DNA of 64,000 nt from a bacterium (GTDB lineage Bacteria > Patescibacteriota > Dojkabacteria > SC72). The position numbers and the translations under genes were made by a program. The notes beneath the pieces were generated by a model. It was not told the DNA's origin and ran no database searches. It worked only from the letters and a program-made list of their open reading frames with translations. Position 1 is the first letter of the stretch, and every line of letters begins with the position of its first letter. Of this stretch, positions 3,173-49,257 are shown in pieces. The stretch covers positions 84,456 to 148,455 of the forward strand of contig JALHDC010000001.1 of NCBI GenBank assembly GCA_022840695.1. The letters run 5' to 3'.

Positions 3173-4114
3173 TTATTTCGTACTCTCTATTCTTTCCCAA
3201 CCTGTTTTAGGCATACCTTTCCTAAGAATATCTCTTTCCCAAACAATCTTTATCCAAGTTATTAACCTAACGGGGAAAAGTAGTAAAGACCACCAAAACT
3301 CTTCAATATTGTGAGGATATTTTAATACAAAAAATGCATAAGAAAGCTCAATAAAAAAGCTCCTACTTTGTTTATCTCTTTGGAAAATACCCATTCTTTT
3401 TAATTGTTTAAATCCTCCAATAGATCTAACCTTCTGTTTATAATAATCCCTTAGATTTGTTGGATATTTAACATAACTTACAGCATTAGGAGCATATGCT
3501 ATATCCAAACCTTGATTCCTTATGTAATATGAAATGTAGGCATCATCAGAAAGAACATCTTGAGGTATTTTCATATCAATGTTCCTTACAGCCATAATAT
3601 ATCCACTCATAGGAAAGAAAGTCTTAGCACTAACATAATAATCTCCTCTCTCTACCTTCTGCATTGTATGTCTTCTTCTATGATCAGCAGAATCAGAGAG
3701 TAAATGTCCCCAATAGCCTAAACATGTATCTCTTTTATCCTGGGAAATGGGCCTTCCACTAACACCTCCCACATTCGAGTGTTGGAAAGGTAATAAAAGT
3801 TCTTTTACAGAATCTTTTCCAAAATAAACATCTCCATCAGTAAATATAATTATGTCACCTTTAGCTCTTTTAATAGCCATCTTTAAAGCAAAAGGTTTTC
3901 CTCTTTGAGGATCTTTTATCTGAATATACTGCTTTCTTGATAATCCTAATTTATTTGCCTCCTTCTGCCCTTGCTTAAGAGTTAATTCATCTGGTGTAAC
4001 TTGTATAATTTCAAAAGGGGATGGAATTCCAGAATATTTTCTATCAGCTATGGAGGAAATACACCTTCTGATTGTTTTCGGTTCTTGCCTAGAGCTAATG
4101 ATTACTGAAATCAT
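3173..4114 (-). CDS. Family 2 glycosyltransferase
   Basis: GT2-type DxD region (IIIFTDGDVYFGKDSVKELLLPF…VGGVSGRP) and a hydrophobic C-terminal segment. Confidence 0.7.
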   Translation of the reverse strand: MISVIISSRQEPKTIRRCISSIADRKYSGIPSPFEIIQVTPDELTLKQGQKEANKLGLSRKQYIQIKDPQRGKPFALKMAIKRAKGDIIIFTDGDVYFGKDSVKELLLPFQHSNVGGVSGRPISQDKRDTCLGYWGHLLSDSADHRRRHTMQKVERGDYYVSAKTFFPMSGYIMAVRNIDMKIPQDVLSDDAYISYYIRNQGLDIAYAPNAVSYVKYPTNLRDYYKQKVRSIGGFKQLKRMGIFQRDKQSRSFFIELSYAFFVLKYPHNIEEFWWSLLLFPVRLITWIKIVWERDILRKGMPKTGWERIESTK

Positions 4115-4810: not shown

Positions 4811-4867
4811 AACGAGTAGGAGTATATCAGAAAAATAATGAAGGAGCAACAGGGATTAAGATAGTAG

Positions 4868-4896
4868 TTGACAGTTTAAATTTCTTCCTCTATACT
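4868..4896 (+). promoter_or_regulatory. Sigma70-like promoter of hrcA-grpE-dnaK (TTGACA-N17-TATACT)
   Basis: Perfect -35 TTGACA at 4868-4873, a 17-nt spacer, and -10 TATACT at 4891-4896, directly abutting the CIRCE-like element. Confidence 0.6.
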
Positions 4897-4923
4897 TTAG
4901 CAGTTAAGCTCTACTTTTGCTAA
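4897..4923 (+). promoter_or_regulatory. CIRCE-like HrcA operator (TTAGCA-N15-TGCTAA), variant with non-complementary inner triplets
   Basis: TTAGCAGTTaagctctacTTTTGCTAA has the 27-nt CIRCE architecture (consensus TTAGCACTC-N9-GAGTGCTAA), lies between the -10 and the hrcA ATG (4925), and shows conserved outer hexamers. Confidence 0.65.
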
Positions 4924-4924
4924 A

Positions 4925-5650
4925 ATGGATTTGACAGAAAGACAAAAAGCAATATTAATGGCTGTAATTAAAGAGTTTATGCAGGAAGCTTCAGAGGTTG
5001 GATCTTTAGCTCTTTTAGAAAAATATAATTTAGGAGTAAGTTCAGCAACCATTAGAAATGAAATGGTTAGACTTATGAGATTAGGACTGTTAGAAAAAAG
5101 TCATATATCTTCAGGAAGATTACCGACAGATCAAGCTTTAAGACTGTATGTTACAAAATATCTTGATAGTAAAGGATTGAACCCTCTAGTTACTGTTGAA
5201 ATAAGGCAAGAAATATTTAGAGATAGATTCTCTAAGGACACTGTTGTCAGGTCAGTACTAAAAGTTCTTGCAAAAGAAAGCGAAGCATTAGTATTTGTAA
5301 TTCTTGATGAAGATATACGATCATACGGTATGTCCAATCTTCTTAGATATGAAGAATTTAGAGATATAGAGAAAATAGAAACCGTTATAAATATTCTTGA
5401 AGATCAAACATTCCTAAGAAATTTAGCTGAAAAATACTCTGGTTCAGGAGTATCTCTTTTGATAGGAGAAGAATCAGGTGTAGATAATTTGGCTGATTGT
5501 GCGATTGCATTCACCAAGATACCTTTTTGGGAAAAGGAAAGGTCATATGTTGGAATTATCGGTTCAAAAAGAATGGACTATGGAAAAGTTCTTCCAGCAT
5601 TAAATGAGGTGAAGAAAGCTTTAGAAAATTCTATGTCCGGATGGAGATAA
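4925..5650 (+). CDS. hrcA: Heat-inducible transcription repressor HrcA (short form, 241 aa)
   Basis: N-terminal winged-helix MDLTERQKAILMAVIKEFMQEAS…SSATIRNEM is HrcA-like. Operon position upstream of grpE-dnaK. Confidence 0.8.
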   Translation: MDLTERQKAILMAVIKEFMQEASEVGSLALLEKYNLGVSSATIRNEMVRLMRLGLLEKSHISSGRLPTDQALRLYVTKYLDSKGLNPLVTVEIRQEIFRDRFSKDTVVRSVLKVLAKESEALVFVILDEDIRSYGMSNLLRYEEFRDIEKIETVINILEDQTFLRNLAEKYSGSGVSLLIGEESGVDNLADCAIAFTKIPFWEKERSYVGIIGSKRMDYGKVLPALNEVKKALENSMSGWR

Positions 5651-5666
5651 ATTAGTAAAAAATATC

Positions 5667-6197
5667 ATGAAGCAAGAAAGCAAGAAAAAACAATTTAGTG
5701 ATACAGGTGTCAAAGAATTAGAAAAAAAGATTCAGGAATTAGCATTAACGATAGATAAATTGGAGGATGAAAAATTACAAATAGAGAATCAGTTAAAAAA
5801 AGCCTTAGCAGATTATCACAATCTCGTTAAGAATTCAGAGAAAAGAGATGAGATTAGAATATTTCAATTTAAAAAGAATCTTCTCGAAGAAATAATTCCG
5901 TCACTAGATGCAGTTATGATGGCTCAAAAAAGTTCAGAGGATTTAAATTTGAATGAAGCTGGGAAATCTTGGTTAGATGGGATAGTAGCAATATTAGATA
6001 GTATAAATAGAAGTTTTGAAGGTATGGGTTTGAAGCAGTATGTTCCTCTTAAGGGAGATATATTTGATAGTAATATGCACGAAGCGGTAGCAACAGTTGT
6101 GGAAGGTGAAAAAGGAAAAATATTTGATGTTGTACAGCCTGGTTATCAATTAAATGAAATCGTAATACGACCAGCAAGAGTCGTAGTATCAAAATAG
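5667..6197 (+). CDS. grpE: Nucleotide exchange factor GrpE
   Basis: Coiled-coil N-terminus plus GrpE C-terminal region (…IIPSLDAVMMAQK…FDSNMHEAV…). Located between hrcA and dnaK. Confidence 0.85.
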   Translation: MKQESKKKQFSDTGVKELEKKIQELALTIDKLEDEKLQIENQLKKALADYHNLVKNSEKRDEIRIFQFKKNLLEEIIPSLDAVMMAQKSSEDLNLNEAGKSWLDGIVAILDSINRSFEGMGLKQYVPLKGDIFDSNMHEAVATVVEGEKGKIFDVVQPGYQLNEIVIRPARVVVSK

Positions 6198-6222: not shown

Positions 6223-8124
6223 ATGTCAAAAATAATAGGAATAGATTTGGGGACAACTAACTCTGTAATGGCTTACATGGAGGGAGGAAAACCCAATGTG
6301 ATACCAAACTCGCAAGGTGGAAGATTAACCCCATCTGTTGTAGCTGAGGATGAAAAAGGAGAAACCTTAGTAGGTACTCCTGCTAAGAATCAAGCTATTA
6401 CAAACCCTGAAGGAACAATATACTCTGTTAAGAGATTAATAGGTAGATCTTGGGATGACCCAGAGGTTAAGAGAGATAAAGATCTCCTTCCTTTTGAAAT
6501 GAGAAAATCAGATAGTGGTGGAGTTGAAGTTAAAATGGGTGATAAGTGGTATACACCACAGGAAATATCGGCAAAGATTCTAGCAAAAATGAAAAAAGAT
6601 GCGGAGGATTTTTTGGGAGAGGAAATTAAAGAGGCGGTTATAACTGTCCCAGCATATTTTGATGATTCTCAAAGACAAGCTACTAAAGATGCAGGAAAAA
6701 TAGCTGGTTTAACAGTAAAAAGAATTGTTAATGAGCCTACAGCTGCTGCATTGGCATACGGTATAGATAAGAAGAAAGATGAAAAAGTAGCAATATTTGA
6801 CCTAGGAGGTGGTACATTCGATATATCAATATTGGAAATGGGTGAAGGTGTTTTTGAAGTCCTTTCTACAAATGGAGATACACATTTAGGTGGAGATGAT
6901 TTTGATCAGGTAATAATTGATCATATTGCAGAAGCATTTAAATCAAAAGAAAATTTTGATTTAAGAGAGGATAGAACAGCACTTCAGAGATTAAGGGAAG
7001 CTGCTGAAAAAGCTAAGATAGAACTATCAACATCAGAAGAAACAGATATCAATATTCCATATATTACAGCTACTGATAAAGGGCCAAAACATCTAAAAGA
7101 GAAATTAACAAGATCAGAGTTAGAAAAAATAACTTCTGATTTAATTGCAAAAACAGTAGCACCGTGTGAGAAAGCTCTTAAAGATGCAAAGCTATCAAAA
7201 GAGGATATAGATCAAGTCCTACTTGTAGGTGGTATGACCAGAATGCCTGCAGTTGTAAAAAAGGTTGAAGAAATATTTGGGAAAGAACCAAATAAGGGTG
7301 TAAATCCAGACGAAATAGTTGGTGTAGGAGCTGCTATACAAGCAGGAGTTCTAGGAGGAGATGTAAAGGATATTACTCTTTTGGATGTTACTCCATTATC
7401 ACTTGGATTAGAAACATTAGGAGGAGTAATGACAAAATTGATAGATAGAAACACAACTATTCCTGTAGAAAAGAAACAGATATTCTCTACAGCAGCTGAT
7501 AATCAACCAGGTGTCGAAATTCATATTCTTCAAGGAGAAAGAGAAATGGCATCAGATAATAAAACATTGGGAAGATTTATTCTTGATGGAATCCCTCCAG
7601 CACCAAGAGGAGTTCCTCAGATAGAGGTAATGTTCTCAATAGATGCAAATGGTATCTTGAATGTAAAGGCATTAGATTTGGCTACAAAGAAAGAACAGAA
7701 AATTACAATAACTGCATCTACTGGATTGAAAGAAGATGAAATAGAAAAGATGGTAGAAGAGGCTGAAAAGCATGCAGAGGAAGATAAGAAGAAAAGAGAA
7801 AGAGCTGAAAAGAGAAATAATGCCGACTCTCTATGCTTTAGTGTTGAGAATTTGATAAAAGAAAATAAAGATAAAATAGATGAAAAAGAGAGAGAAGATA
7901 TAGAAAAAATGTCTGAAGAATTAAAGAAATTAATAGAGAAAGAAGATTTTGATGAAAATGAGGTAGAGAAAAAGACAGAAGAACTCTCAGAGAAGATGCA
8001 AGAGATAGGAAAAAAGATGTATGAACAAGCTAGTAAGGAACAACAGGAGTCAAAGAAAGAAGAACCTAAAGAGGATGAAACAAAAGATAATGAAGAAGTG
8101 AAGGAAGGAGAGGTTGTAGATTAA
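6223..8124 (+). CDS. dnaK: Chaperone DnaK (Hsp70)
   Basis: [21 protein letters not shown] and other Hsp70 signatures across 633 aa. Confidence 0.97.
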
Positions 8125-8218: not shown

Positions 8219-10528
8219 ATGCTAGAAGATTCTAAATCAGGTATTAAGAATAAGCTCACTATTCCTCTCGTTCAGAAATATATGTTCTGGATCTTAATAT
8301 TTCTTTTGCCTCTGACAATAATGCCATTTCCTTGGGACTGGACAGAAAGGGGTATGTCATTACTTATACTTTCTTTTTCAACTGTAATTCTAGGATTAGA
8401 GATAATCAAGTTAGTCTGGGAAGGAAAAAGCAGTATCTTAAAAAGTGTTTTTGACATATCTTTTTTCCTAATTCTTCTGTCCATGTTACTTTCTACAATC
8501 TTTTCAAAAGATATTAATAGCAGTATATGGGGAATAGATGGAAGATTAGGCAATGGATTAATTGTATATATTTCCATTCTTTTAGTAACTATATCCTCAA
8601 GAATATTTTTAATAGAAAGAAAAGATATTGAGTACTCAATATTAGCATTTCTTTTTGGCTTCACTATAAATAACATACTAAGTATATTGTCCTTCTTAGG
8701 TGTAAATGTTTGGGGAATAATTCCAATATTTAAGGATCTACATCAGTCGAGCTTGCCAATTCTTAGATCTTCAAAGATTCATATATTATTAAATTTCCTA
8801 ACAGTTATTTTCAGTATTGGTTTTGTTGGAGAGTATTTTATTCAGAAAAAGAATGAAACAAGATATATTCTTGCATTAATATTTGGATCTATTGCTATAT
8901 TCAATATCTGGATATTCTCCATTAAACAAGGATTTAACCTACTACTTGTTATACTCTTTTTGTTAATTATCTTCACTTTACTTGTTTTAAAGAAGACAAA
9001 CTTTCAATTGAATGTATCTAAAAATATATTTCTTCTTTTTGTAATAGCCATACTTGCAATACTACTGCCAGCAATCCTGTTGCATATTCCTGCAGTTTTA
9101 AATCTCGTGGTTCCCAATAATATGGATTTGGTAGCACAAGTATCATTAGGATCTGATGTGTCTTGGATGATTGCAGCATCTGTATTTGTAGAATCTTTCA
9201 TTAGAGGTGTATTTGGTATGGGTGTAGATACATACTCAATCGCATACTATTTATACAAACCCTTGAATATTAACTTATTGGCATTTAATCAAGTAACTTT
9301 CTATTATGCAGGGAGTGAACTATTTACTCAATTTACAAATGGAGGTTTACTTTGGTTATTGGCTTGGTTATTCCTAGTCTTCTCTTTGATTAAGACATTT
9401 GTGAAGGATATAAAGAATATTCGTGCATACTCAGATCATTCCACTATTTGGAAACTCCTAATACTGAACCTGTCGATCCTAATAATCTATATATCCTCCT
9501 TCTTCCTAACATACTCGGTTCTAGTTCTTTTCCTTCTTCTCGCACTTGTATCTTTTAGGGAAATAATAAAGGATATTCTTAAAAAAGGAACGGGAGACAG
9601 ATTTGTTCTTAAGTTATGGGCAGTTAATCTGAATACATCCAATCAGGATGGTAAATCTACTAATAATTTAAATATTTTCCTTACCATACTATTCTCTTCG
9701 ATAACAGTTGCTATATTAGGTTTTTGGATAATGAAAGGAGTTTCAAGTATGTATGCTCTAAAAGCAGAATCATACTTCGTTGAACAGAATAGTAAATATC
9801 AGGGTGATAATTATCCATCTATAGAAGAAAGAGAAACCTTTATAGCTTCGATGACTCATTATTACAGTAAGGCGGTGGATTTTGATAAAGGAAACTCCTT
9901 GTATAACAGGAGATTAGGATTAATGTATTTGGAAAGAGTTGGGATAGCTGCCGAGAGATACTCTAAATTGGAACAGGAAGAAGATGCCAACACTGATTTA
10001 ATTAGAAATGTTGGAATATGGAAAAACAATGTAATAGATTCAACTAGAAAAAGTATAGACCTCTCACCAAATGTATATGCTAACTGGGAGGCCAGAGCTA
10101 GGATATACATGGGATTAGTTGGAATGGGTTTCTATGACTATACTCCTGAAGCTCTTTTCTCTTTGGAGAAAGCCATAGAACTTAATCCCTTGAATTTTGA
10201 ACTTCACTACAGTATGGCTCAGATATATGTTATCAAAGGAGAAAAAGATAGTGCATTAGCATCCTTGACAAAAGTCTTAGGCATAAATCCACAACATATA
10301 GCATCTATTCTTCTTGCTGGAGATTTGAATAAGGAAAAAGGTAATATGGATGTATATGAATCATATTTAAAGGCTGCAAAGAAGATACTTGAAACACAGG
10401 GGAATACAAATTTGGATGTGTATAATGAAGTCACAAAACAGCTCAATAGTATTACTAATACAGAGGAATCAACTACAGAAACTGAAGAAAGTACTCAGCA
10501 GGAGGAAACTTCTGAGTCTGAAGAATAG
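8219..10528 (+). CDS. Polytopic membrane protein (O-antigen ligase/Wzy_C-like) with C-terminal TPR repeats
   Basis: About 12 hydrophobic helices in the N-terminal 450 aa. C-terminal TPR-like repeats (…ELNPLNFELHYSMAQIYVIKGEKDSALASLTKVLGINPQH…) and an acidic tail. Confidence 0.45.
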   Translation: MLEDSKSGIKNKLTIPLVQKYMFWILIFLLPLTIMPFPWDWTERGMSLLILSFSTVILGLEIIKLVWEGKSSILKSVFDISFFLILLSMLLSTIFSKDINSSIWGIDGRLGNGLIVYISILLVTISSRIFLIERKDIEYSILAFLFGFTINNILSILSFLGVNVWGIIPIFKDLHQSSLPILRSSKIHILLNFLTVIFSIGFVGEYFIQKKNETRYILALIFGSIAIFNIWIFSIKQGFNLLLVILFLLIIFTLLVLKKTNFQLNVSKNIFLLFVIAILAILLPAILLHIPAVLNLVVPNNMDLVAQVSLGSDVSWMIAASVFVESFIRGVFGMGVDTYSIAYYLYKPLNINLLAFNQVTFYYAGSELFTQFTNGGLLWLLAWLFLVFSLIKTFVKDIKNIRAYSDHSTIWKLLILNLSILIIYISSFFLTYSVLVLFLLLALVSFREIIKDILKKGTGDRFVLKLWAVNLNTSNQDGKSTNNLNIFLTILFSSITVAILGFWIMKGVSSMYALKAESYFVEQNSKYQGDNYPSIEERETFIASMTHYYSKAVDFDKGNSLYNRRLGLMYLERVGIAAERYSKLEQEEDANTDLIRNVGIWKNNVIDSTRKSIDLSPNVYANWEARARIYMGLVGMGFYDYTPEALFSLEKAIELNPLNFELHYSMAQIYVIKGEKDSALASLTKVLGINPQHIASILLAGDLNKEKGNMDVYESYLKAAKKILETQGNTNLDVYNEVTKQLNSITNTEESTTETEESTQQEETSESEE

Positions 10529-13694: not shown

Positions 13695-13724
13695 TTGCCT
13701 AATTCCTAACCATTATGATACAAT
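13695..13724 (+). promoter_or_regulatory. Candidate promoter of groES-groEL (TTGCCT-N18-TACAAT)
   Basis: Hexamers seen directly. The -10 ends 3 nt before the CIRCE-like element. Confidence 0.4.
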
Positions 13725-13727
13725 TCT

Positions 13728-13754
13728 CTAGCAATCAATAAATTAATCTGCTAA
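13728..13754 (+). promoter_or_regulatory. CIRCE-like element upstream of groES (CTAGCA-N15-TGCTAA)
   Basis: CTAGCAATCaataaattaATCTGCTAA. Same 6-15-6 architecture as the hrcA site, 6 nt upstream of the groES ATG. Confidence 0.6.
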
Positions 13755-14064: not shown

Positions 14065-15711
<1,647 letters not shown>

Positions 15712-25972: not shown

Positions 25973-26226
25973 TATCCTTTGAATGGGTTTGCTAATTTTA
26001 AAGCTGATACAGCTCTGTGTATTTGTGGATTTTTTATACCTTTTGCTATGTCTGCTTTATATGTACTTTTCTCTTCTGCCTTACTCAATTGATCCAGATC
26101 AGAGAGTAATTTATCTTGTGCTATCTTCTTAGTATCTACTGCCTGTGTAACCAAGTAGTTAGACAGATTTATTTGATTTTGACTACTGTCCTGTTCTTCC
26201 ATATTCATCCTCCGGATAACTTTCAA
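25969..26226 (-). CDS. Small hypothetical protein, last gene of the VirB4 operon (true start may be an internal Met)
   Basis: 85-aa helical ORF overlapping the VirB4 3' end by 44 nt. No recognisable domain. Confidence 0.3.
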   Translation of the reverse strand: MKVIRRMNMEEQDSSQNQINLSNYLVTQAVDTKKIAQDKLLSDLDQLSKAEEKSTYKADIAKGIKNPQIHRAVSALKLANPFKGY

Positions 26227-28639
26227 CTAAACCTTGGGGAGTTAAATGTTTTCTTCCCCTTTGTATATCCTCCCTTGACTTTACAGTTTGTCCTGAAATT
26301 GTACTTTCTTTTAATTCATCTAAGAATGTTTTTTGACTTTTATATTTCTCAGGATTTAATTCCATCTCTTGCTGTCTTAATCTCTCTTCTATTTCTTTCT
26401 GATACTGTTTTCTTTCTTCTTCCAACATTCCTTTATTTCCCTCTGTCCTACGAATAGCTTCTTGTATAATTTGTTCTTCTCTTTTGAGATTTCCTCCTCC
26501 CTTTAGTGGCTTCTGTTCTGCTGGAGGATCAAATATTTCTGATAGCTCTTCAATGGTTCTAGTCTCTGTTTGTCCCTCTCTCTTCTTAAGTTTTTCTAAA
26601 TCCCTTGGGTCTGAAGTGATCAATTCGTGTTCAGATACACTAGAAAGAACTTGTATACCAACATGGTTTGATCCAGCGAAGAATAGTCCTTGTCCTTTGT
26701 CACAGTTAAGGAGGAAATTCTTTTCCCCATCAGAAAGATTGAATACCTCCTGAAGTTTCTCTACAGCGGTAGGGCTTTGCATCATTAACATCTGCATAGA
26801 TGAGTTTGAAATAATGGCTTTTCCCATATCTGTATTTAAGAAATCGGCTACATCCTGGGTTATTGTTGAAAGTCCTAAATAATATTTTCTCGCTCTCTTA
26901 GCTATTGAATACATGAATCTAGCAGAATCTTCCGATTGCATCATGTACCAGGCTTCATCTACCACTAACAATCTTCTTTTTCTCTCCTTCCTTATCTTTG
27001 TCCAAATGAAATCAAGCATTAAGTACATAGCTAAAGGTTTTAGCTCTTCCTGTAGGTCTCTAATACTAAATACAGTGAATGGATTATTAATCTCAAAGTT
27101 ACTAGCTTCATTGAAAACTCCTGCACCACTTCCAATTATGTATTTTTCTAATCTCTTGGCTAAACCATGTGCTTCTGGTTCTGCCATACCTTTCAACACT
27201 TTGTACAGATCTTCTAGCATAGGGGGTGTTTTAGTTTGTGTATTTGGATCAAAGGTGATACCTTTTTCTCTGTATGTAAGTATTAAAGCTCTATCTAATA
27301 TGGAACCTTCAATATTATCTATTTCTCCAAATAGTACTCGGAAGAATCCTTGAAGAGAAAGCATTTTCATCCTTAATTCATCATCTCCTTCCTCTGTAAC
27401 TCCTGAAAGCTCAAAAGGATTCATTTTGTTTCCTTTATCCTGAGAGAATGAAATATATGCACCATTTACAGCTCTACAAAGATCTTCATATTCTCTTTCT
27501 GGATCAATTATTATTATTTCTGTGCCAAGCATCAAACTTCTAACAGCTTCTAGTTTTACAAAATAGCTCTTACCAGCACCAGATTTAGCAAATACTACTG
27601 TATTTGCATTTTCTAATTCGAATCTATCAAAGATAACTAAACTTTTGTTATGGAGGTTTAATCCATACATTATTCCATGGTCCATTGTTAACTCAGAAGT
27701 AACGAAAGGAAAGGTGGTTGCCAACGATGTAGTATCCATGTTTCTAGTTATATACAGGTTATCGAGACCTAGAGGTTGGGTACTGATGAATCCTTGTTCT
27801 TGTTGTAGTGTAGCTGGTTTCGCAGTCACATTAATAGCTGCAAGTGTAGATGTTACATTTCTTCCAATCTTTTCTAATAGCTCTTTATCTTTCGCATACA
27901 AGGTTATGTACATAGCAAAATGGAAAAACTTTTCGGTACCCTCTGCAATAGAATCTTGTAACTGTTGAGCATCTGATAGGGCAACCTTTAGTGAAGGATC
28001 TACTACCTTCCTATCTTCCATTTGAGCATACAAAGAAGCTTCCATTTCTCCTATCTTCTTTTTCAATTTCTCAAGTATAGTTTTAGAATCAACGGGATAG
28101 TAGAAGGTACTTATCCTCAAAGAGTGTTCGAAGTTGATAATAGGAGATAACCAATTTGGTCCTACAAACCTAGGATATCCGCTTACAAAAAGAGTTTTGA
28201 AATAATACTCTCCCATCTCTAAATGATTAAAATCCACCTCCAAATCTATTGGGGCTACTATATCCTGTATGGACATGTCCGTAGGGGATACTTTTACCTT
28301 CTCCAATACTTCTGCAGATATTGATTCTCCAACATTGTTATCTACTCCTGAATCAGTACTTTTCTCTTTCTCTCCTTTTCCAAACACTCCTGCAACATTA
28401 TCTAAGAATGTAAATAGAAAATTCTTCTTTTTCTTCTTCTCTACATCTTCTTTTGGTATTGGATCATTATATCTATTAAAATTCATTTTTTCAGAATTAT
28501 CTGTTGGTTCAACTTTAATTTCCTCCTTGAATTCATTATATTTTTCTCCAGGAGTCTTAAGTTTCTCTGCCTGTTCCTGTAACATCTGTGCTGTTTTATT
28601 CTCAAACGATCTATTGTAGTTATCATTAATATTTTCCAT
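26183..28639 (-). CDS. VirB4/TrbE/CagE-family type IV secretion ATPase (core + C-terminal part), with charged N- and C-terminal extensions
   Basis: IDLEVDFNHLEMGEYYFKTLFVSGYPRFV, Walker A AKSGAGKSYF, IIIDPEREY, Walker B LLVVDEAWYMM, STITQDVADF. Confidence 0.85.
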   Translation of the reverse strand: MENINDNYNRSFENKTAQMLQEQAEKLKTPGEKYNEFKEEIKVEPTDNSEKMNFNRYNDPIPKEDVEKKKKKNFLFTFLDNVAGVFGKGEKEKSTDSGVDNNVGESISAEVLEKVKVSPTDMSIQDIVAPIDLEVDFNHLEMGEYYFKTLFVSGYPRFVGPNWLSPIINFEHSLRISTFYYPVDSKTILEKLKKKIGEMEASLYAQMEDRKVVDPSLKVALSDAQQLQDSIAEGTEKFFHFAMYITLYAKDKELLEKIGRNVTSTLAAINVTAKPATLQQEQGFISTQPLGLDNLYITRNMDTTSLATTFPFVTSELTMDHGIMYGLNLHNKSLVIFDRFELENANTVVFAKSGAGKSYFVKLEAVRSLMLGTEIIIIDPEREYEDLCRAVNGAYISFSQDKGNKMNPFELSGVTEEGDDELRMKMLSLQGFFRVLFGEIDNIEGSILDRALILTYREKGITFDPNTQTKTPPMLEDLYKVLKGMAEPEAHGLAKRLEKYIIGSGAGVFNEASNFEINNPFTVFSIRDLQEELKPLAMYLMLDFIWTKIRKERKRRLLVVDEAWYMMQSEDSARFMYSIAKRARKYYLGLSTITQDVADFLNTDMGKAIISNSSMQMLMMQSPTAVEKLQEVFNLSDGEKNFLLNCDKGQGLFFAGSNHVGIQVLSSVSEHELITSDPRDLEKLKKREGQTETRTIEELSEIFDPPAEQKPLKGGGNLKREEQIIQEAIRRTEGNKGMLEEERKQYQKEIEERLRQQEMELNPEKYKSQKTFLDELKESTISGQTVKSREDIQRGRKHLTPQGLVESYPEDEYGRTGQ

Positions 28640-47278: not shown

Positions 47279-48076
47279 TTATATTCTTCTTTCAGCTACA
47301 ACTATTAATCTCTTCGTCCCAATGCCTAACGGCCAACATGTCATCAAAGTGACAGTTTCTTTATTATTTACAGGTTGTAAAATTGTAAAATCTTCAGGAT
47401 CCACAATCTTTTTATTCCTTACGATATATTCTAGTACTTTCTCCTCCCTGTTTACAACTATTTTCTGACCAATATCAATATCATTCAGTCTAGAAAAAAT
47501 TGTTTCTGGAAGATCCTTGTGTCTACTAAAGAAAGATTCAACAGCACTATGACCATATATGAAGGAATTTCCTCCATCTCCTGGAAGGGGAGTACCTTTA
47601 AAATGAGCCACTCCATTTTTTAAATATTGGTTGTATATTGATTCACTGGAACTCTCGACATTGGAACTAATTTTTATGTCTTGTATCCCAACACTCTCAA
47701 TTGATATGTACATATCCTTCTTATACTCCTTGTCTATATTTACTGATGTCTGAGTTCTAGTCTCAGGATTGTAGGAATATTGGCCCGTTATATCGAGATT
47801 GCCTAATTGCTCAGAAAGATTGGCAAAATAGCTTTTTCCTGGATCATAATATGCAAATTCTTCTTCGACATATTTTTTGTATGATTCTGGGACTGGATCT
47901 ACCTTAATATCTTCTCTCTTCTGTTCTACAACTCCTTCAACATATGATTTTGTAAGCGGTATTACCTGACTTGCAACAATAATTAATCCTGAAAAAGCTA
48001 AAACAGCGGAAATCCATAATCTAACTTTTTTAATTTTATTATTACTATGTGTTTGTACATTCCAAGTATTCTCCAT
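47279..48076 (-). CDS. Sortase family transpeptidase
   Basis: N-terminal TM. Catalytic His region FIYGHSAV, TLxTC motif VTLMTCWPLG and downstream Arg (…VVAERR). Confidence 0.85.
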   Translation of the reverse strand: MENTWNVQTHSNNKIKKVRLWISAVLAFSGLIIVASQVIPLTKSYVEGVVEQKREDIKVDPVPESYKKYVEEEFAYYDPGKSYFANLSEQLGNLDITGQYSYNPETRTQTSVNIDKEYKKDMYISIESVGIQDIKISSNVESSSESIYNQYLKNGVAHFKGTPLPGDGGNSFIYGHSAVESFFSRHKDLPETIFSRLNDIDIGQKIVVNREEKVLEYIVRNKKIVDPEDFTILQPVNNKETVTLMTCWPLGIGTKRLIVVAERRI

Positions 48077-48117
48077 AGTATAGATATTATCAGATTTAAT
48101 CTTTTAGTTGAAATAGG

Positions 48118-48144
48118 GTAGCAAATATATTTCTACTTTGCTAA
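48118..48144 (+). promoter_or_regulatory. CIRCE-like element upstream of dnaJ (GTAGCA-N15-TGCTAA)
   Basis: GTAGCAAATatatttctaCTTTGCTAA. Same 6-15-6 architecture as the hrcA and groES sites, 12 nt upstream of the dnaJ ATG. Confidence 0.55.
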
Positions 48145-48156
48145 AATCATTCTGTT

Positions 48157-49257
48157 ATGGAAAAAAGAGACTACTATGAAGTATTGGGTGTAAAAAAAGA
48201 TGCTAGCAAGGATGAGCTTAAGAAAGCCTACAGAAAGCTTGTTAAAAAATATCATCCAGATGTGAATAAGGAAGCTGATTCTGAAGAGAAATTCAAAGAG
48301 GTTCAAGAGGCATACGAAACTCTCTCAGATGATGGAAAAAGAAAGGCATATGATCAGTATGGACATGCTGGTACCGCTGGTTTTAATCCTGGAGCAGGTA
48401 ATGGCTATGAGTATCAGGGAACACCTTTTGATATGGGAGATATATTTAGTACATTTTTTGGAGGGAATACTGAATTTGGTAATGGATTTGGTTTTGATTT
48501 TGGTGGAAGAGCAGGTTCCCCAAGGGAAGATATTGGTTCGGATATTAGGTATAGAGTTCGAGTGAGCTTTGATGAAGCTATGAGAGGGGGGGAGTATAAG
48601 ATTAAGATTAAAAGAGATGAACGATGTGAAAGATGTGATGGAAGTGGAAGTGAAGATGGAAAGAAAAAAGAATGTCCAGTTTGTAAGGGTACGGGAAGAG
48701 AAAGACAAGTTAGAAACACAATTCTCGGTCAAATGGCTGTAATGTCAACTTGTAGTAATTGCCAAGGAACTGGCACAATTATTGATAATCCTTGTAAGCA
48801 GTGTAAAGGTACAGGAGTTAAAAGTCTTGAAGAATCTTTAACAATTAAGATCCCTGCAGGGGCATATGATGGTATGGTTCTGAGATTCAGAGGAGGAGGT
48901 AATGTGGGAAGAAATGGAGGCTCCGTTGGAGATTTGTATATTGAGATAGAGGTTGAGGCATCTTCAAAGTTTGAGAGAAGAGGTAATGACATATATTCTC
49001 AGGAGAGTATTCCTGTATATACAGCTGTTTTAGGGGATACGATATCTGTTAGAACAATATTAGAAGATGTGAAATTAAAAATACCAAAAGGCACCCAATC
49101 AGGAACAATCTTCAAATTAAAAGGAAAAGGTTGTCCAATATTTAATGAAAAAGGAGAGAGGGGGGATCAGTATGTAAGAATAAATGTTGAGATTCCTGGG
49201 AGATTAACTAGGAAAGAAAAGGAACTTTGGGAGAAATTGCTAAATTTGGGCAAATAA
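48157..49257 (+). CDS. dnaJ: Chaperone DnaJ
   Basis: J-domain DYYEVLGV…YHPD and four CxxCxGxG zinc-finger repeats. Confidence 0.95.

Follow-up and report, generated by a model that had tools for sequence, protein, structure and literature searches.

A reduced CIRCE element as the probable HrcA operator of hrcA, groES and dnaJ in Dojkabacteria

HrcA and CIRCE are among the most conserved repressor–operator pairs of bacteria, and the 9-N9-9 CIRCE consensus is routinely used as a fixed pattern for the prediction of heat-shock regulons. The hrcA locus described here raises the question of how much of this pattern an HrcA operator has to keep. Directly upstream of the gene lies a 27-mer that retains the outer bases of the canonical consensus, TTAGCACTC-N9-GAGTGCTAA as quoted in PMC7464140, and lacks its inner CTC/GAG triplets. 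The relevant features are listed below; coordinates refer to the window, i.e. the whole 64-kb stretch of DNA that was analysed.

4868–4896, + strand: hrcA promoter, with the −35 TTGACA at 4868–4873, a 17-nt spacer and the −10 TATACT at 4891–4896
4897–4923, + strand: putative reduced CIRCE operator of hrcA-grpE-dnaK, a 27-mer read from the sequence, TTAGCAGTTAAGCTCTACTTTTGCTAA
4925–5650, + strand: hrcA, 241 aa, winged-helix DNA-binding domain and HrcA C-terminal domain
5667–6197, + strand: grpE (PF01025, GrpE)
6223–8124, + strand: dnaK, from the ORF list and the DnaK translation

The 27-mer divides into TTAGCA GTT AAGCTCTAC TTT TGCTAA (spacer letters aagctctac) and is followed by one A and then the ATG at 4925. 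An earlier note on this DNA had placed a perfect σ70 promoter, TTGACA-N17-TATACT, immediately before it; the letters of both are confirmed at 4868–4923, but the promoter is near-perfect rather than perfect, scoring 11/12 in a consensus scan, as its −10 is TATACT and not TATAAT. The note was right that the outer hexamers and the 27-nt length match CIRCE (none of the 12 outer positions is mismatched) and that the inner triplets, GTT and TTT, have no complementarity. The transcription start predicted from the promoter consensus falls at about 4902–4905, inside the left arm, and the operator fills the entire predicted leader of about 22 nt, in which there is no Shine–Dalgarno sequence. We infer that hrcA, grpE and dnaK are co-transcribed because the gaps between them are 16 and 25 nt; HSP70 is called at the orthologous dnaK position in L161–L166.

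Similar elements are present upstream of two further chaperone genes or operons in the window.

13695–13724, + strand: groES promoter, with the −35 TTGCCT, an 18-nt spacer and the extended −10 TGaTACAAT
13728–13754, + strand: putative reduced CIRCE operator of groES-groEL, CTAGCA ATC aataaatta ATC TGCTAA
13761–14060, + strand: groES (PF00166, Cpn10)
14083–15711, + strand: groEL, from the GroEL translation, with Cpn60 called in orthologous loci
48118–48144, + strand: putative dnaJ operator, GTAGCA AAT atatttcta CTT TGCTAA
48139–48147, + strand: dnaJ extended −10, TGCTAAAAT (TGcTAAAAT), formed by the operator right arm plus AAT
48157–49257, + strand: dnaJ, 366 aa, with DnaJ, DnaJ_CXXCXGXG and DnaJ_C domains, a separate transcription unit

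At groES, the arrangement TTGnnn-N17/18-TGaTACAAT stops 3 nt short of the operator left arm, the operator ends 6 nt before the ATG (13761), and TGATACAAT is kept in seven of nine Dojkabacteria groES loci. At dnaJ, where 12 nt separate the operator from the ATG (48157), the right arm is itself part of the extended −10, which lies 9 nt before the ATG in the window and 6–9 nt before it across relatives. TGCTA(A/G)AAT is present in 20 of 21 orthologous dnaJ sites, the exception being L093 with TGTTAAAAT, and seven relatives have TTGGCA as their left arm, which agrees with the −35 consensus in 5/6 bases at a spacing of 18 nt. Since the dnaJ intergenic region holds no other promoter-like site and the right arm can be read as an extended −10, the dnaJ operator would be the promoter as well. 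That its right arm lies over the sole recognisable −10 was absent from the earlier note. A leaderless or near-leaderless dnaJ mRNA is probable.

The dnaJ gene is divergently paired with a sortase-family gene (PF04203; window 47279–48156), as in most of the dnaJ loci examined. The sortase gene has a −10-like GATAAT 9 nt before its ATG and a putative −35, the complement of TTGAAA, at 48108–48113; as 4 bp separate the end of this box from the dnaJ operator, the sortase promoter, too, might be influenced by bound HrcA. Among the ten largest remaining ORFs of the window, sought for further stress genes, there are no chaperones or proteases. Elsewhere in the window, an 818-aa protein (26183–28639, − strand) carries a TraG/VirB4-type P-loop ATPase domain (PF19044, E=8e-28) and is possibly part of a type IV secretion or competence-like machinery, which has been reported for Patescibacteria.

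Could such short matches arise by chance? With zero mismatches, TAGCA-N15-TGCTA occurs three times in the window as against 0.08 ± 0.27 in shuffled sequence, and none of 100 dinucleotide shuffles reaches three matches; the three starts, at 4898 (hrcA), 13729 (groES) and 48119 (dnaJ), all lie just upstream of chaperone genes. Only the exact core discriminates. Looser patterns are uninformative by themselves: TTAGCA-N15-TGCTAA with up to two mismatches gives nine matches against 4.7 expected in the window, and TAGCA-N15-TGCTA with up to one mismatch gives three against 2.0. The 6-15-6 architecture that the earlier note had described for groES and dnaJ is not exact there, one of the 12 outer positions being mismatched at each; the exact core shared by all three sites is 5-15-5 (six on the right) because the left hexamers are CTAGCA at groES and GTAGCA at dnaJ.

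Sister genomes were drawn from three sources: a one-genome-per-species scan, which gave six Dojkabacteria-like hrcA loci plus dozens of other lineages; four HrcA-homologue look-ups, which gave four more usable loci with conserved synteny (rpoBC-rpsL-rpsG / GT2 / L25 / hrcA-grpE-dnaK ... murJ ... groES-groEL); and a metagenome scan with DnaJ, which gave about 20 dnaJ loci of 57–84% identity. The element is present at a fixed position in all 11 hrcA, nine groES and 21 dnaJ upstream regions (41 sites). Its right arm ends 1 nt from the start codon at hrcA (11/11 genomes), 5–7 nt from the ATG at groES, or 21–24 nt in the two most divergent genomes, and 9–12 nt from it at dnaJ. Each of the 11 Dojkabacteria hrcA loci also keeps the hrcA promoter, TTGAC(A/T/G)-N17-TATAC(T), immediately before the operator. 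About 30 related genomes contributed 365 kb of Dojkabacteria DNA, in which T[AG]GCA-N15-TGCTA has 40 distinct matches, every one at an hrcA, groES or dnaJ operator and none elsewhere. The earlier note had asked that the pattern exceed random frequency and be present in sister genomes, and on both counts its proposal held, the element being at orthologous positions in every genome examined.

At most two of the 12 outer positions are mismatched in any of the 41 sites; among 112-nt windows taken at random from this DNA, just 1.4% reach that level, even with windows that overlap true sites counted in. The outer-arm invariance is partly built in because the sites were picked as the best outer-arm matches; the control with random windows shows that such matches are rare by chance. 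What is informative is how the inner positions behave, that the geometry is fixed and that off-target matches are lacking.

The frequency matrix of the 41 sites has T2, G4, C5, A6, T22, G23, T25 and A26 invariant and C24 in 40. Position 3 is A in 26 sites and G in 15, the left arm tolerating TTGGCA in the latter, and position 27 is A in 34 and G in 7. Inside these cores, position 7 is a purine in 33/41 (C in canonical CIRCE), position 20 is T in 37/41 (canonically A) and position 21 is a pyrimidine in 39/41 (canonically G), while complementarity at arm positions 7, 8 and 9 is 0.29, 0.39 and 0.20. The resulting Dojkabacteria consensus, yT(A/G)GCAr-N12-TyTGCTA(a/g), is, as read from the aligned sites, a reduced and slightly asymmetric CIRCE, and more than two bare hexamers. 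The earlier statement that only the outer half-sites are read was too strong, given that T20, Y21 and R7 are still informative. Only the hrcA sites have the spacer motif T9-A10-A11-n-C13-T14.

Set beside the canonical CIRCE/HrcA system of the Bacillus subtilis type, the Dojkabacteria system shares the 27-bp 9-N9-9 frame with a 15-bp separation of the core pentamers, the outer TTAGCA/TGCTAA arms, the place over the promoter or start of hrcA-grpE-dnaK and groES-groEL, the autoregulated hrcA heading its operon and the recognition helix VSSATIRNEM. The operator starts 0–4 bp past the −10 at hrcA and groES. In contrast to the canonical system, CTC/GAG and the 9-bp complementary arms are gone lineage-wide (the window sites have GTT/TTT, ATC/ATC and AAT/CTT), and the preferences found instead are weak for R7 and stronger for T20/Y21. 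The left arm may be TTGGCA, dnaJ has an operator of its own whose right arm is part of the promoter, and HrcA both lacks about 105 central residues and is changed next to the recognition helix. In the same scan, perfect inner triplets were present upstream of hrcA in about 40 other lineages.

Judged from what they read, where they lie, how far they exceed chance, how strictly they are conserved and how closely they are confined to the regulon, the 27-bp elements at 4897–4923, 13728–13754 and 48118–48144 are very probably the operators of the HrcA encoded at 4925–5650, in the form of a Dojkabacteria-specific CIRCE derivative. The central claim of the earlier note, a heat-shock operator without CTC/GAG at hrcA, groES and dnaJ, is thereby supported.

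What kind of HrcA would read such an operator? The protein has 241 aa (ORF 4925–5650), as had been noted, and belongs to a group of more than 100 homologues of 241–242 aa and 69–100% identity which, where named, come from Candidatus Dojkabacteria (= candidate division WS6, CPR). It matches PF01628 with 76.8 bits against a cut-off of 22.2 (E=3e-21), over profile positions 90–214 of 215 only, and the winged-helix family PF03444 marginally (20.1 bits against 21). TIGR00331 is matched in two stretches (E=1e-53), the 183 bits falling under the equivalog cut-off of 197.2 because of a deletion. Residues 3–81 align to 15–93 of PDB 1stz (E=4e-17) and residues 133–198 to 233–293; an N-terminal winged-helix domain with a conserved recognition helix and the HrcA C-terminal domain are thus both found, and the full-length architecture of about 340 aa, with a central inserted domain and a score over the cut-off, is not. 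Aligned with 17 full-length HrcAs, the protein lacks a central block of about 105 aa bordered by the conserved '...T.Y.S.V' and '...Y.G.SNLL..PEF' segments, which we take to be the inserted dimerising domain that forms the main dimer interface in the Thermotoga maritima structure (1stz). This domain loss is read from sequence alignments; an AlphaFold2 model from a 16-sequence alignment had a mean pLDDT of 43, with residues 58–241 below 50. Against NF003033, the NCBIfam short-HrcA model of 264 positions, the N-terminal 80 residues match with 64.5 bits (cut-off 248), i.e. only the DNA-binding domain of the Dojkabacteria HrcA resembles that family.

The residues involved in operator reading were compared between 103 Dojkabacteria HrcAs and 37 HrcAs encoded behind perfect CIRCEs. 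Both sets have the same recognition helix, VSSATIRNEM, and the same wing core, SGR.P, which fits the conserved pentamers of the predicted operator. Dojkabacteria-specific changes at otherwise near-invariant positions are P24E, K/R28L, Y18F, I19M, E51M, T61I and Y72L, all except T61I being counted as lying next to the recognition helix. Position 24 is Pro in all 37 of the other HrcAs. P24 and residue 28 belong to the beginning of the helix just before the recognition helix; they are candidates, and plausible ones, for the residues that have lost contact with the inner triplets. No single protein determinant of the relaxed operator correlates cleanly with it: L007 keeps P24 yet has degenerate triplets, and some lineages with a canonical CIRCE have E as residue 28. 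In the 1stz alignment, L is also found in T. maritima HrcA at the position of Y72. The case of L007 suggests that the loss of the triplets may reach beyond Dojkabacteria or be convergent.

Other lineages allow HrcA length and operator form to be compared more widely. Across 64 hrcA loci, tabulated by HrcA length and best upstream CIRCE, HrcAs of 334–371 aa have a perfect TTAGCACTC-N9-GAGTGCTAA almost without exception, and the Dojkabacteria hrcA sites have 3–6 inner mismatches. The same block of about 105 aa is absent from every short HrcA sampled (220–247 aa, mostly CPR-labelled; L007–L014, L018, L021, L025, L031, L032, L035 and L061), so that dimerisation in these proteins would have to differ from that of T. 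maritima HrcA. Six short-HrcA loci (220–240 aa) nevertheless have the perfect TTAGCACTC-N9-GAGTGCTAA, namely L018 (Veblenbacteria), L021 (Falkowbacteria), L061 (Parcubacteria), L035 (Patescibacteria) and L031 and L032, which carry no phylum label. These other CPR lineages resemble Dojkabacteria in HrcA architecture, gene context and an operator at the hrcA promoter; they differ in keeping perfect CTC/GAG and in often putting the −35 or −10 inside the CIRCE spacer, where Dojkabacteria have the whole hrcA promoter upstream.

A number of further observations concern these loci. Most short-HrcA loci still keep a canonical 27-bp CIRCE, and short HrcAs also occur under non-CPR labels (L009, Eggerthellaceae, 65% GC; L025, 'Gammaproteobacteria'). 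TTGACA (or TTGCAC/TTGCCA) lies in the 9-nt CIRCE spacer, with the −10 downstream, in L021, L035, L031, L012 and L008, and a TATAAT or TATACT −10 lies within the spacer in L032 and L061. Variant hrcA operators are CTGGCAGAA-N9-GACTGCCAA in L010 (Gracilibacteria; 9960–10000; arms TGGCAG/CTGCCA), TTAGCAGAC-N9-GACTGCTAA in L025, CTAGCATCT-N9-CTCTGCTAA in L007 and TTGGCACTC-N9-TACTGCTAA in L008. Faecalitalea (L019), with a full-length HrcA of 347 aa, has CTAGCACTT-N9-CACTGCTAA plus TTAGCAGAC-N9-GAATGCTAG.

Considering how the inner triplets came to be lost, the earlier note had hinted that the operator is reduced because HrcA is short, the truncated repressor reading outer half-sites only, and Dojkabacteria do combine an HrcA of 241–242 aa, missing its central block, with operators without CTC/GAG. 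The suggestion fails on the six loci in which the same deletion accompanies a perfect CIRCE, which uncouple operator reduction from short HrcA; moreover, the full-length Faecalitalea HrcA has degenerate triplets, and positions 7, 20 and 21 are still informative in Dojkabacteria, so that we regard this explanation as very unlikely. Nor is the element easily seen as a decaying, non-functional CIRCE relic left by AT-biased drift in a reduced genome, tempting as the GC content of 30–35% and the loss of precisely the inner G/C-containing triplets may make that view. Ten core positions are invariant or nearly so in 41 sites from organisms whose HrcA and DnaJ are merely 57–86% identical, flanks and spacers are scrambled around this conserved core, and hrcA is intact and conserved. 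Low-GC Firmicutes (28–31% GC; L015, L072, L034, L036 and L053) retain perfect CTC/GAG, from which it follows that AT drift is not the cause of triplet loss, and a relic is in our judgement highly improbable.

Two further explanations would give the element another function altogether. It might be a promoter and not an operator: the left arm would supply the −35, and the right arm together with AAT the extended −10, possibly for recognition by an alternative heat-shock sigma factor. In the consensus scan, TTAGCA-N18-TAAAAT, which has a TG upstream, scores 9/12 at hrcA, and at dnaJ the near-universal TGCTA(A/G)AAT is the only promoter found. At hrcA, however, the would-be −10 overlaps the start codon (the 1-nt gap of all 11 genomes), which makes it unusable as the hrcA promoter, since a transcript from it could not encode HrcA. 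The distances from arm to ATG (1 nt at hrcA, 5–7 or 21–24 at groES, 9–12 at dnaJ) are incompatible with a single promoter geometry, and strong conserved σ70-type promoters lie directly upstream at hrcA and groES. A promoter in place of an operator is thus distinctly improbable, and the dual operator/promoter role at dnaJ belongs to the best explanation, that of an HrcA operator. Alternatively, the inverted repeat could act as RNA, through a 5′ UTR hairpin controlling mRNA stability or translation: most of the element would be transcribed at hrcA and groES, and CIRCE reportedly has a role in mRNA stability in B. subtilis. We give this almost no credence, as the hairpins are no stabler than shuffled sequence (z = −0.44, +0.07 and −0.84), the stem would be incomplete because the predicted start sits inside the left arm, and the dnaJ element lies upstream of its predicted start. 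An Rfam scan of the window had zero matches and so revealed neither a known RNA element nor the 3′ end of a 16S rRNA.

As to how the operator would work, we infer from the accepted HrcA/CIRCE mechanism that HrcA binds and represses, and by what signal induction occurs: a dimer of HrcA on the inverted repeat would block RNA polymerase. In the case of hrcA and groES, the operator would lie just past a strong σ70-type −10 and cover the start site and the whole short, Shine–Dalgarno-less leader; the predicted starts, at about 13731 for groES and at the position already given for hrcA, are in the left arm, and a bound HrcA dimer would therefore occlude the start and the initially transcribed region. 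At dnaJ, where the start is predicted at about 48153–48157, the right arm would overlap the extended −10, and in the TTGGCA relatives the left arm would be −35-like. In other bacteria, footprints of HrcA have this same placement, covering core promoter and start (PMC7464140, PMC6032397). The circuit would be autoregulated because hrcA heads its own operon. Repression would presumably be relieved on heat or unfolded-protein stress, by GroE titration or by intrinsic thermolability of HrcA, in line with the GroE and thermosensor control described for HrcA (PMC9696931; also PMC7464140, PMC6032397).

A more specific and rather tentative idea is that HrcA and CIRCE of the Dojkabacteria may have co-evolved to a minimal operator whose two 5-bp cores, T(A/G)GCA and TGCTA, are separated by 15 bp; P24E, the loss of the basic residue 28 and Y72L would have abolished the contacts through which the inner CTC/GAG is read. 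If so, the inner positions and the spacer would have been freed for the start site, for an AT-rich non-SD translation motif and for the dnaJ −10, and in some relatives the dnaJ left arm would also be −35-like, within a near-leaderless promoter. Together with the CPR-wide loss of the central block, this would mean that HrcA can read a 27-bp repeat via a different dimer architecture, and that it needs far less sequence information than assumed.

The crowding of operator, promoter and start codon can be viewed alongside other gene starts in the window. GGAG, GAGG or AGGA is present at −18 to −4 in five of 50 crude gene starts, and a −10-like hexamer ends 4–10 nt before the ATG in 17 of 48 starts as against 5.4% of random positions; examples in this tally are the starts at 4114(−), 11223(−), 30198, 33833(−), 56625(−), 61317, 41989(−) and 48157. 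This suggests widespread leaderless mRNAs in this Dojkabacteria genome; in the literature searched, no paper was found that links Patescibacteria with both Shine–Dalgarno use and leaderless transcripts, and the only match for Dojkabacteria together with leaderless transcripts concerns something unrelated. In front of the divergent gene for ribosomal protein L25/Ctc (4151 to about 4810, − strand) a TATACT is conserved some 10 nt from the likely ATG (MEKIIF...), and in the upstream region (4811–4860, minus strand) the sequence 'ccataacgagtaggagtatatcag' is nearly identical in L001, L002 and L005. Its transcript is a candidate leaderless mRNA, and the listed TTG start at 4849 is probably too far upstream.

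Operon-internal genes have an AT-rich, TAAATTAA-like motif upstream, seen at dnaK (6223), groEL (14083), 21286, 22899, 2484, 45888(−), 50775, 52804 and 56710; relative to the ATG, TAAAT is most frequent at −21 and AAATT at −20. The motif is a candidate non-SD translation-initiation signal. In the groES operator the spacer is filled by ATAAATTAAT (13737–13747), which is conserved in relatives; in L005 and L006 the spacer differs and an AT-rich TAATTAA stretch lies between operator and ATG instead. The hrcA-specific T9-A10-A11 is likewise at −20 from the ATG.

The element is a lineage-specific variant of a well-known switch and no new kind of system. Degenerate CIRCE-like operators are already known for epsilonproteobacterial HrcAs: those of Helicobacter pylori and Campylobacter jejuni bind inverted repeats similar, not identical, to CIRCE, and in the groES and hrcA operons their footprints extend over core promoter and start (PMC7464140, PMC6032397). 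By published description, this short-HrcA system resembles that of Dojkabacteria; it differs in being co-regulated by HspR/HAIR. In the literature searched, no paper was found linking HrcA or CIRCE with CPR, Patescibacteria or Dojkabacteria.

Consensus-based regulon prediction would miss the Dojkabacteria sites. As a natural experiment, the lineage could also help to tell which positions of CIRCE are needed by HrcA and which residues may read the inner triplets, and it illustrates operator remodelling where the leader is squeezed to about 22 nt and Shine–Dalgarno sequences are hardly used. If the elements are indeed the HrcA operators, a whole class of uncultured CPR bacteria would run its heat-shock regulon on the outer pentamers of CIRCE.
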